Origin: Takakia lepidozioides | Taxonomy: Eukaryota; Plantae; Bryophyta | Direction of reading: 5' to 3' | NCBI GenBank assembly: GCA_030704615.1 | Contig: CM060734.1 | Span: forward strand, 60,636,001 to 60,700,000 | Length of the DNA stretch: 64,000 nucleotides | In this document: positions 43,869 to 47,510 of the stretch, piece by piece | Layout: every line of letters starts with the position of its first letter | Position numbering within the stretch: the first letter of the stretch is position 1 | Position numbers and translations under genes: made by a program | The notes under the pieces: model-generated | Databases searched by the model: none | What the model was told of the DNA's origin: nothing | Seen by the model: the letters and a program-made list of their open reading frames with translations, nothing else

Positions 43869-44755
43869 AAACAAACGTTTTTTTCTGCGACGTCGCATTA
43901 GGGACGTCCGGGGGTCGTAAATGCGACCCCCAGACGTCACAGTAGGAGAGTACAGTTGAATTTAGGTGGAAAAATTTGAATTGGAATTTGAATTTAAAAA
44001 ACTAGTTGACCATTGACTTCGGTTTTATCCAATGACAATTCATGCATTGTTCTACATATATTAGGCAATGCATATTTGAACCTATGACCTCCACATTATA
44101 ACATTTCTAAGACACTGCACACTAACCAACAAATCTACAATACATCTATGTATCACAAAAGCAGTCCAAGTATATATATATACATCTCAAGAGTTAGCTC
44201 CTAGTGACTACCACTATCTTAATCCTATCATTGTGTTGCAGATTATGCGTACTCTACAAGAGCTATCACAGCTGGAACTTGCACTGAGACTTCTCCCTAG
44301 AGTTCTTCAAGAACAAATATCTATCAATGGCCTAAGTTTTGCAAAGTTGCATTGCAACTTATTGTTGGACAATGGCTATAATCTGAGGATGCCAAGCCCA
44401 TTATGCCCTATAATCTACTCCCAGAATCAATTTTCTGCGACGCCCCCAGGACGCCGGGGAATCATAGCGCCCCAGCCCCAGCGACGCTTTTGAGACGGCG
44501 GGGAATCGCAAGGAAAAAAAAAAAAAAAAAACCACGGGTTTTTTTTTTTTTTTTTTTTTCGGGCATTGCGATTCCCCGCCGTCGCAGGAGCGCCCGGTCG
44601 CAACCCCCCAGTGCATTGGCGGGGGAATGGGGTCAGGCCCCTTTCCGGCGATGACATGACATCGCAAGATGCCACAACGTTGTCCGAGCGCCGGCGTTAC
44701 GACGCCCTGACGTCGCAAGTCCCGAGCCGGGCGCCTGTGCGACGCTGCAGTCTCT
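43060..44755. mobile_element. GC-rich foldback/DNA-transposon-like remnants (43060-43945, 44435-44755)
   Basis: Many gcgacg/cgtcgc and ggggaatcgca/tgcgattcccc motifs in both orientations around poly-A/poly-T tracts. Confidence 0.5.
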
Positions 44756-47510
44756 CTCCTCCGATGACTGTAGGTCCAACATCCGGTTCCCTTCTCAGTG
44801 ACTGCAACCTTGGGTACACCAGGCTTGGAGGTAGGAGACGCGTCCTTTGATTGCTAGATAACAACCTCTTGGGCCTTATCCGCCCACCTTGACTGTGGCG
44901 TAGCCTCCACTTGCTCTGCCCTAGCCACCTTGAGAACATCATCTGGGGAAGAAACATTCTCAACCTCTTCAAAAACATTGGCCACCTTGGCTTCCAACTG
45001 ATCCTCAGTGTATGGTTCTCCCCACTCCTCATATTGTTGCTTGAGAGATCCAATGACTCTCTCTTTCCGCATCTCATCCCACATCTGTCATGAGTGTTTG
45101 CACCCCATGATCCTATGCTCGCCCCCACTCATTGCCTTAACCGTCTCGGTTGGCAGAGGGGATACAATACCAAATGGGAGTGCAAAAGTAGCCACCACTG
45201 TCTACAACCTCCGTTGCTCAGTCACGCACAAGCCAATGATCCATGTCAAGCAATTTAGATCCATTGCTTGACCCAACACATGTCGGCGTGATGCCTCTGA
45301 CAAAGTTGGCACAGCTGTAGTGCCCGTGGCAAATTCCATTGCTCGCTCTCGCTCATCTGCATTGGGCTCCACCAATTGTTGTAGCACACTGTCCCAAATC
45401 AACCCAGGACCATTGTCTCGAAAAGCATAAAACAAGGGAAAGTTCATGAGCGTATGCAAGGCCGCACGTGGCTGCCCCACTCGATTTACCACTGCTAGAG
45501 GTGGACGGTCATCATGTCCACTATTACGTTTAGGAGGGGTTAGCAATGTCAGCACCCCGGGCGCGCCGGACGCGCCGGACGCGCCGACCCCGGATCCAGC
45601 GATTTCTAAGGCTTATAGAAATTGCTTTACCTTTGGTTTGAAGGATTTGGGGAGTTTGAAGGGCTAGGAGATTCGTATTGATTTGGCAAGTGACACGTCA
45701 ATTTTTCGAAGGCCCTACCGGTATAGTGACATGGAGAGGTCATTGATCCAGTCACGGACTATGAAGTTGTTCGAAGCTGGATTGGTGGAGTTGTCAGACG
45801 GGGAGTATGCCTCGGCAACGGTGATGCCAGCTAAGAATGATATCTATGGCAATTGGACAGAAAAGAGGATGTGTGGGGACTATCGTCCTGTGAATCGTCA
45901 GACTACGTCCGATAGATATGTCATGCCAACTCCAGAGGAGATCTTTGATGCCTTTGGGCATGCAAAGGATGTTTAGCACATGCATTCTTTAGTCTGCTCT
46001 TCATTTGTCAACCTAAAAAGTGGAAGGACATGGATATGATTGCACTGGAGATTTTTACCTTTTTAGTCCCAGCAGTTCAGTTGACTGAGTAGGACTCTGG
46101 TTAACCTTGTGATACTTTGCAGAGTTACCATCTTCAGAGTGGTTTTCGGAATGATAATTAATTGGATTGTCATGTCTTGCGATCTGGTTACCACTAGTTG
46201 CCAATCAAAGAGGCTGACAAGGCAAGTGAGGGGGCTGCGTATGCATTCTTAGATCGAATGCTTAGCCTATGTGGTACTCCAGCCGAGGTACTCACGGACC
46301 AGGAGAGAAAGTTCTTGGGGGAATTTTCAGGCTTTGTGTGAGCAAGCCTTGATAGATCACCGCACTACTTCTCGGGATCATCCCGAAGCTGATGGCCTGG
46401 CAGAGAGATTGTACAAACAGTCAAGCGAGGCTTGCGTAAGTATGGCTTGCAGAAGGGACACTTAGGAGATTGGGACCTTCAACTACCTTGGTTGGCCATG
46501 GGCTACAGGTTTAACAAACAAGCATCACTTGCCTCGTTCTCACCTTATTTCCTTCTCTTTGGCCGAGAGCTAGATTTGTCTGCATCTATTCGCAGGGAGA
46601 CTATAGTAGTCCTCAACCTTGATGATCCGGATGTGTGGATACAAGCATGTGCCCAACGGGCAGAGTTGTTCAAGAAAGTCATGCCTATGGCTTTTGAGAA
46701 CCTTGCTATTGCCCAACACCGAGACACATTGAAGTACGTCATTATACGTGGAGGGGGATATCGGCCAGGTGTTCGGTGTTTCCACCCCAGGGACTATGTG
46801 TATCTGCAGCAGACAGCGCCTACGACTTTGGATGTCACAGCAGGACGTGTGATTCTAAGGGTCCGGGAGGTGCTGCCTTCAGGAGTGTTGATTCTGGAGG
46901 GTCGAGATGGCATGGTATGGAAGGACCATGTACACAATTGTGCGACATATCAATTTCCATATGTGGATGGGAGGATAGATCCCAACTTTGCAGTGGTACC
47001 TGCAAAGTTGCGTTGCATGCTATGTGGGCATGTTGGTGGTGCCGCAACCATGTTTGTGTGTGATAAATGCTCAAGGGGGTGGCACATGGGATGCTTGACA
47101 CCGCCACTTGAGGAGGTTCCTAGTGGAGAATGGTTGTGTCCATGATGCCTTGGCCATAGGTAATGGGCATGACAATGGTGTAGTTGACAAGTGATCCAAG
47201 GTCTAGCTGGTAGGAGCTCAACGCCATGGATACTCAATTGAAGATCATGGATTGCAAGCAGGCGACTAACGATGGGGCCCTCGTTGCACCCAGCCTCTTG
47301 ATTCATATACTTTAGAAAATTGGGAGATGTGTGATTGAAGACCAAGCTATGATCTTATTGGGATGAATACTTGTCAGCTATCCGGTGTTAGAGGGACCTA
47401 ATCACCAGCTAGGGGGACAATTGTGTTATAGTTTTCTAGGATTGTGTGCTTATAATGTATATTAGACAACGATGTATGTTGTGGCAGGATGCTTAGGTGC
47501 ACGACAAGGC
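44755..47510 (+). mobile_element. Decayed Ty3/Gypsy LTR retrotransposon: inverted DNMT/linker segment, RT fragment, integrase plus PHD finger, PPT and start of the 3' LTR
   Basis: RT: RRPYRYS...EYASATVMPAK...KRMCGDYRPVN...YVMPTPEEIF (45600-45970). Integrase: EVLTD...HPEADGLAER, SPYFLLFGR (46210-47000). PHD: C-x2-C...CDKC...WHMGC...WLCP. PPT agggggacaa at 47411-47420, then TG at 47422. Confidence 0.9.
45202..45525 (-). pseudogene. C-terminal fragment of a C5 cytosine DNA methyltransferase (target-recognition region, motifs IX and X) belonging to the Gypsy element
   Basis: EPNADERERAMEFATGTT...RRHVLGQAMDL matches the motif IX (ExxRxxGF) and motif X (R...LGNA/S) pattern; catalytic motifs I, IV and VI are absent. 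Confidence 0.7.

Follow-up and report, generated by a model that had tools for sequence, protein, structure and literature searches.

What might a land-plant retrotransposon do with a DNA methyltransferase (DNMT)? The question is raised by a stretch of 64,000 nucleotides from the bryophyte Takakia lepidozioides (GenBank assembly GCA_030704615.1, contig CM060734.1, positions 60,636,001 to 60,700,000 of the forward strand; hereafter the window, in whose own numbering coordinates are given). A peptide reading DDRPPLAVVNRVGQPRAA...GPGLIWD...EPNADERERAMEFATGTT...RRHVLGQAMDL runs there on the minus strand from 45518 down to 45202, with an acidic linker behind it, next to the remnants of a Ty3/Gypsy element: part of the reverse transcriptase (RT; 45608–45967), pieces of the integrase core (46204–46460) and the integrase C-terminus with a PHD finger (46393–47148), all on the plus strand. 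The DNMT peptide is antisense to these remnants. An earlier note, made from the sequence alone, had read the peptide as DNMT motifs IX and X and the locus as a dead copy of a DNMT-bearing Ty3/Gypsy family. The analysis described here places the window copy, with very little doubt, in a bryophyte Ty3/Gypsy family of the order Gag–protease–DNMT3-like enzyme–stop–RT–RNase H–integrase–PHD. The best explanation overall, to which we assign a probability of roughly 0.6, is that this family makes its DNMT at the level of Gag, packages it and methylates the element's new cDNA, and that the window holds a dead, rearranged copy.

Taken on its own, the DNMT peptide has no Pfam match at E ≤ 0.1, and the profile check against PF00145 that the earlier note had proposed came back empty, although many homologues of the peptide carry that domain. 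Of 202 candidates, 99 are homologues at E ≤ 0.001 (best 1e-47, 82% identity), the named ones coming from Marchantia polymorpha, M. paleacea, Sphagnum, Calypogeia and Riccia, and the family profile aligns ERERAMGF...RRHVLGQ with motifs IX/X at the C-terminus of DNMT3A. The assignment to motifs IX and X holds on the profile alignment and the homologues, but not by a domain match of the peptide itself. The family carries motifs I, IV (PC), VI (ENV), VIII, IX and X in non-permuted order, and the window copy keeps only the part behind motif VIII together with motifs IX–X. A tblastn search of the window with full-length relatives found 43512–43619 (plus strand) and 45518–44929 (minus strand) only, with motifs I, IV and VI absent; a second DNMT piece, comprising the residues immediately upstream in the protein, occupies 43524–43613 on the plus strand. 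No gag, protease or DNMT motifs I–VI were found within the window, and about 570 amino acids of pol are also lost; the copy is dead, as had been supposed from its missing catalytic motifs.

Relatives were collected from metagenome contigs, where 275 of 357 pattern matches encode a relative and the best 80 loci (numbered L001 and upward) were kept; of the two pattern matches among viral contigs, neither is a relative. Within the reach of each contig, the 80 loci read Gag–zinc knuckle–protease–DNMT–RT–RNase H–integrase–PHD on one strand, with extra inverted pieces in L063 and L064. The relatives have the Ty3/Gypsy order protease–RT–RNase H–integrase, and the window has RT and then integrase. RT lies downstream of DNMT in 62 of the 80 loci, in the same frame in 46 of these, and the other 18 end, or show no RT, after DNMT. 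The intact siblings anticipated earlier do exist, for L048 is near intact (ORF1 of 1369 aa, TAG CAG TTA, ORF2 of 1047 aa) and its ORF2 matches Ty3 Gag-Pol best among solved structures (E 4e-98), followed by a caulimovirus (2e-47) and MLV (2e-29). The L001-type linker is nearly identical to that of the Sphagnum proteins P0004 and P0080, and an exact look-up of the L048 and L053 ORFs in the protein collection had no match. In a quick DNMT tree of 78 rows, hand-picked from 153 domains after removal of near-duplicates, a 46-row clade (support 98) holds the window piece and all named bryophyte proteins; outside it stand single-ORF DNMT–RT fusions and forms with DNMT between RNase H and integrase. 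Paired 33-row quick trees of RT and DNMT each place the window piece beside L037, L001, L002 and the Marchantia protein P0075. Because both trees put the two pieces next to the same relatives, DNMT and RT are not chance neighbours, and the phylogenies together with the shared domain order bear out a DNMT-bearing RT–integrase–PHD family in a land plant. At E ≤ 1e-30 the profile matches 448 clusters at 50% identity, and the wider group is therefore large and mostly unnamed; a protein-cluster look-up of P0159 returned DNA_methylase clusters only, the first being mostly Streptophyta.

Several other features of the group were seen along the way. In the cluster of P0009, many proteins listed as "hypothetical" in Marchantia, about 1280 aa long and in several cases encoded on the V sex chromosome, are the element's ORF1. 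A second subfamily (L073, L076, L077 and P0171) has DNMT and RT fused without a stop, and WEC for WPC in motif IV; it shares the terminal arrangement B-A-B and the palindromic B|A junction described below. Polyproteins with DNMT downstream of RT (P0168, P0175–P0183, P0187, P0190 and P0192) form their own clade in both the RT and the DNMT trees. Finally, L017, L060 and L067 contain two or three related insertions of 0.65–0.9 kb (73–76% alike), one of them in the DNMT–RT linker.

Against solved structures the family profile finds DNMT3A first (E 2e-13), ahead of a DRM-type enzyme (3e-5) and HhaI (4e-5), and a model of the L048 domain (pLDDT 78) retrieves DNMT3A/3B in Foldseek at E 7e-17 and a TM score of 0.62. 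Sequence and modelled fold show the domain to be DNMT3-like, with methyltransferase activity as a prediction. Among 43 clade rows, which were chosen for a long domain match and are biased to intact copies, the catalytic Cys and the Glu are each present in 42 and the motif VIII Arg in 40 and 42. The ratio dN/dS is 0.09–0.22 in the six of 15 pairs with unsaturated dS (values include 0.034/0.261 for L048–L051, 0.162/1.44 for L048–L053 and 0.28/1.82 for L037–L002), and the domain is shown by these substitution ratios to be under purifying selection. No host plant DNMT3 occurs among the matches of the family searches, and no trace of a donor was obtained from them.

The antisense position of the DNMT peptide has its origin in two later events. 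The plus-strand DNMT piece, which follows motif VIII in its original orientation (43524–43636, WTNL...VEGILD..., tblastn E 1e-7 to 1e-9 and alignment), ends in GAC and is followed at 43637 by a CACTA terminus (CACTACTATGTTTT); the inverted minus-strand piece, with the target recognition region and motifs IX–X (45202–45518), opens with a second GAC beside another CACTA end at 45519. Once the inversion is allowed for, this insertion has exact termini and a 3-bp GAC duplication on both sides; a transposase was not sought. We take it to be of CACTA type from its terminus and 3-bp duplication. At two mismatches the CACTA pattern occurs at chance level (5 seen, mean 3.8), and only the two exact matches count. 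The left part of this non-autonomous insertion, with CG-rich subterminal repeats, spans 43637–44747 (plus), and its other end, flipped by the inversion, spans 45519–45601 (plus). The last five bases of the latter, CAGCG (45597–45601), match CGCTG at 44743–44747, so that a 5-bp match is common to both inversion breakpoints. The inverted acidic linker (44748–45201, minus) ends in ...GGERLQ, the sequence that stands ahead of RAYRSCF in relatives, and the reading resumes on the plus strand at 45608 as ...KAYRNC; this linker-to-RT joint is read from the window's junction sequence and the relatives. A CACTA-type element split the DNMT gene, and a later inversion turned the segment 44748–45596, which reaches from within that element to the junction of linker and RT; for this reason the DNMT piece is antisense to RT. 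A third end (TAGTG, 43521–43525, minus), the right end of another CACTA-type element lying upstream, truncates the 5' part of the retrotransposon; only its first seven bases match the other two ends, and it is the least sure of the three.

Sibling copies were traced in four of ten listed sequencing runs, the best of which covers 0.39 of the sequence words. Contigs joining 43619 to 45518 on opposite strands were found in all four runs (seven contigs). Weighing against this result, the joint comes from at most two samples and has short sides of 53, 18, 27 and 18 letters, at least 30 in one run only. Summed over the four runs, depth across the DNMT–linker piece is about 100-fold that of the right flank, an excess that shows a multicopy family, though not its copy number.

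The DNMT–RT–integrase–PHD layout suggested at the outset is right in its order, but DNMT and RT do not form one open frame in the clade, as a conserved stop lies between them. A TAG or TAA followed by CAR-YY stands 95–175 nt ahead of the RT match in 54 of 59 short-linker loci, compared with 2 of 57 RT windows of equal size; the pattern allows C-to-T decay, and there are 51 distinct linkers in about six subfamilies. The misses are L043 (an indel), L064 and the fused L073, L076 and L077 outside the clade, and an exact or near-exact motif occurs in five further subfamilies. In the window the stop reads TAG CAA TCA (44856–44848, minus), in the same place and with an exact fit to the consensus UAG-CAR-YYA. 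The unnamed ORF1 proteins end about 90–230 aa past motif X. UAG-CAR-YYA is the tobamovirus-type readthrough signal, which works in plants (PMC3542737, PMC5397192; here and below, statements on cited work refer to the accessible parts of each source). Because a conserved stop in this context separates DNMT from RT, Pol is probably made by readthrough. The otherwise open element L037 has another in-frame TAG (3192–3194), between its protease and DNMT; it was seen once and is probably a mutation.

The ends of the element are equally unusual. With two queries taken from L066, A (339 bp) and B (112 bp), the two identical long terminal repeats (LTRs) of an ordinary element were not found; the elements end as A...B-A-B or as A...B. 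As in other Ty3/Gypsy elements, the outer ends are of TG...CA type and are flanked by short target duplications. Three distinct sites show the former arrangement (duplications CATA, TCTC and AAGG) and three the latter (TACA, TGTT and GGTA/AGTA), with a perfect 4-bp target duplication at five of the six distinct sites where both ends are available and three of four bases at the sixth; further 3' ends comprise three B-A-B, six B only and two cut by contig ends. No TGG start follows the 5' A in any of 13 loci. In five of the 13 the 12 nt after the 5' A pair at 11–12 of 12 positions with a stretch about 33 nt past a TATA-like box (0 of 200 shuffles each), an arrangement that recalls the self-priming known in Tcn1/Tf1 elements (PMC6317226); the weaker match in the other eight counts against self-priming. 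The split ends, the 4-bp duplications and the conserved B|A palindrome point to an integrase that cuts at an internal site, a reading to which we give even odds.

The 3' part of the window copy can be followed to such an end. The N-terminal half of RT (45602–45967, plus) has one stop inside, and about 200 bp (45968–46181, joint at 45966–46182) replace the C-terminal half of RT, RNase H and the integrase zinc finger, the roughly 570 aa lost by comparison with L048. Integrase core and C-terminus, frameshifted, and a PHD finger with a stop ahead of its last Cys (E 2.4e-9) occupy 46204–47148 (plus). A polypurine tract lies at 47411–47420 (plus), with 47387–47428 matching the tract region of relatives at 81–93%, and the terminal repeat B (TG...GCACGACA) at 47422–47506 (plus), with no copy of A after it, gives the B-only form. 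This repeat was assigned by its position behind the tract and its CACGACA end, with no full-length alignment to the B of L066.

The data presented above have led us to propose a model in which most ribosomes would stop after DNMT while a minority read through UAG-CAR-YY to produce Pol. As the DNMT sits ahead of the conserved stop, the enzyme would likely be made in bulk with the capsid protein. The protease would then free the DNMT inside the particle. Self-primed reverse transcription would yield a normal (B-A)-body-(B-A) cDNA, on which the DNMT would place 5-methylcytosine, probably at CG, so that the cDNA arrives pre-marked. The integrase would cut at the palindrome where B meets A, so that a linear or one-LTR form would insert as A-body-B and an end-joined circle as A-body-B-A-B; such internal cutting would resemble the circle-junction integration of IS3-type elements. 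The PHD finger has CHD4, PHF12, PHF21A, KDM5 PHD1 and UHRF1 as its closest solved relatives, PHDs that mostly read unmodified H3 tails, and it may steer integration through such a tail. That cDNA is the main substrate of the DNMT is about a coin toss on the sequences at hand. Two observations count against the model: the CpG observed/expected ratio of the elements (0.28–0.70) is no different from that of the window (0.52), and the related domain of KnitGypsy-Dnmt3, discussed below, gave no methylation in yeast, a result its authors call inconclusive (PMC5890265). Rather doubtful, taken as a whole, is the widest version of the model, an ancient land-plant Gypsy lineage with UAG readthrough, self-priming and particles loaded with a DNMT3 that is made by stopping short of RT, whose DDE integrase leaves the cDNA ends alone and instead cuts a CG-containing palindrome, internal and RNA-templated, on a circular or linear cDNA.

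Other explanations have been considered for each part of this model. That an unrelated methyltransferase fragment came to lie beside a Gypsy relic by chance would suit the opposite strands and the lack of a Pfam match for the peptide, but the GAC duplication, the 5-bp breakpoint match, the linker running into RT, the sibling joints, the congruent trees and the order in the relatives reduce this to a negligible prospect. In place of readthrough, Pol could arise by reinitiation, by splicing or from an RNA of its own. Three public fusion-like gene models (P0075, P0010 and P0080) do leave out the stop region, it seems as part of a predicted intron, yet each skips a different stretch. Most of the stop-motif loci belong to one Sphagnum-type subfamily, so that their count overstates independence; this subfamily has an ATG two codons past the stop, and 40 of the 54 matches read CAA CCC, one base off CARYYA, all of which tells against readthrough. 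However, no ATG after the stop is common to the loci, L037, L048, L053 and the window having none there, while the reading frame is preserved through the stop, with CAA or CAG as the following codon in nearly all loci. We consider a separate route to Pol improbable, and readthrough remains the preferred reading.

The split ends could be post-insertional or due to template switching, A-body-B-A-B being the sole primary product, A-body-B arising from it by B–B recombination, and the integrase using linear ends as usual. Such recombination keeps the target duplication and yields exactly A-body-B, and a circle with two B|A junctions should be open to cutting at either, whereas the form A-B-A-body-B was not seen among 13 distinct 5' ends, which is awkward for a plain circle model and weighs against internal cutting. 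In the widest and rather doubtful version of the model, the form could be missing because methylation by the DNMT of the element itself settles at which of the two sites the integrase cuts. Opposed to the recombination account, the polypurine tract stands ahead of B and not of A, and the putative primer site comes after A, an arrangement in which ordinary reverse transcription would neither begin at A nor finish at B; the very distant L048, L053 and L076/L077 retain the palindrome CACGACA-NN-TGTCA at the B|A junction; and the A|B joint consists of the A end and the two bases next to the tract on its far side, L056 also having filler and tract remnants there, like an end-joined circle. This account is a serious contender, though somewhat behind internal cutting. 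As to the substrate, the DNMT might act after integration or in trans, on the insertion and its flanks or on host loci, and not on cDNA in the particle. A stop after the DNMT domain could supply abundant DNMT free of RT as a nuclear enzyme, and the PHD resembles chromatin readers (CHD4, PHF21A, KDM5 PHD1, UHRF1); but the DNMT is co-translated with Gag and protease, which favours packaging, and de novo methylation running unchecked in the host would presumably be costly. Action outside the particle appears unlikely to us, and packaging with methylation of cDNA is the reading carried forward.

Among known systems the closest is KnitGypsy-Dnmt3 of Klebsormidium nitens (de Mendoza et al. 2018, PMC5890265). 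It is likewise of Gypsy type, its Dnmt3-related domain is non-permuted and evolves under purifying selection, and according to the figure legends it has DIRS-like repeats in the order A-coding-B-A-B. Its host is a charophyte and not a land plant, and its DNMT shares one ORF with RT and RNase H, whereas in the bryophyte clade DNMT ends ORF1 at the conserved stop; fused DNMT–RT forms exist outside that clade. The 4-bp duplications, B|A palindrome, A...B form and PHD of the bryophyte family do not appear in the accessible text on KnitGypsy-Dnmt3, with which the comparison is by description (PMC5890265). No Klebsormidium-named sequence occurs among the family search matches. Common descent with KnitGypsy-Dnmt3, as compared by description, is likely. 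SymbioDIRS-Dnmt3 of Symbiodinium is also a retrotransposon-borne Dnmt3, with A-B-A-B repeats, and methylates CG de novo in yeast, but it is a DIRS element with a tyrosine recombinase, in contrast to the DDE integrase and target duplications of the bryophyte family (PMC5890265). The EpiLTRs of Cymbomonas and Euglena are LTR elements that similarly combine a DNMT with a chromatin-reader domain; they differ in a DNMT4-related enzyme, Dam and a chromodomain, and in its position in pol (bioRxiv 10.64898/2026.05.21.726589). Readthrough of the tobamovirus type and of gammaretrovirus gag-pol also involves an in-frame UAG that separates the polymerase from a structural or first ORF, although the bryophyte stop follows protease and DNMT and not Gag (PMC3542737). 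The moss enzyme PpDNMT3b is a DNMT3-type de novo methyltransferase like that of the family, but is a host gene (PMC6453930).

Four classes were rejected as homes for the family. DIRS, PAT and Ngaro elements are excluded by the rve integrase, by the lack of any recombinase family in the two L048 ORFs (plus-strand scan) and by the target duplications; Troyka, an animal group with CG...CG ends and a 3-bp duplication (PMC12440569), differs in its ends and in the length of the duplication; the NCGN insertion preference of Phygy (REXdb) is seen in none of the six duplications; and chromoviruses are set aside by a PHD, with no chromodomain, after the integrase.

A literature search that covered sources other than subscription journals and Repbase found neither a land-plant record of the family nor an account of readthrough in it; for split ends combined with a DDE integrase, the Klebsormidium legend was the one description found. 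Marchantia and Sphagnum go unmentioned in the accessible parts of PMC5890265, and those of PMC6453930, PMC11982613, PMC8616336 and PMC11244446 contain no such element. Later papers citing PMC5890265 speak of "streptophytes" (PMC12344493, bioRxiv 10.64898/2026.05.21.726589), and their supplementary trees could hold land-plant sequences. Software that looks for a pair of identical LTRs would probably overlook such elements, which may explain the lack of reports.

These results extend methyltransferase-carrying retrotransposons from algae that are hard to study to Marchantia polymorpha. Methylation mutants are available in this genetic model, many copies of the element are annotated there as hypothetical genes, and the benefit that a transposon draws from methylating DNA itself becomes directly open to experiment. 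The extension of range to land plants is a moderate one; the stop and the end structure are new leads, the former as a handle on enzyme dose and the latter, with its ordinary target duplications, as a suggestion that an LTR-type integrase may choose its ends differently.

Elsewhere in the window, the 3' end of the retrotransposon abuts the second, inverted copy (47507–47927) of a Pro/Gly-rich repeat with HPFPPPPFGSF units, the first copy of which lies 10 kb away at 36475–37600. A tandemly duplicated repeat at 41177–42927 (97% over 300 nt) stands well above all else in summed depth across the runs used, and a GGCTGTGAC-type satellite at 34600–36200 runs into a 500-N gap. An intronless SufE-BolA gene (49747–50835, plus) has Sphagnum proteins as its best matches and is sister to Sphagnum (SH-aLRT 97) in a quick tree of 36 rows that used 35 of the 120 listed matches; its protein has no exact match in the protein collection. 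PPR genes are present as well. On this single gene the host is likely to belong to a moss lineage close to the peat mosses, and it is safely a land plant. Nearby, tRNA-Gly(CCC) (49538–49608, minus) adjoins a perfect 14-bp tandem array of more than 20 copies (49190–49510). A PPR gene (29683–32048, minus) consists of repeat units of about 300 nt in several frames, broken by a GA microsatellite, and is either a pseudogene or affected by assembly errors. An ORF at 58104–58724 (minus) resembles, by eye, an exon of a PP2C phosphatase.

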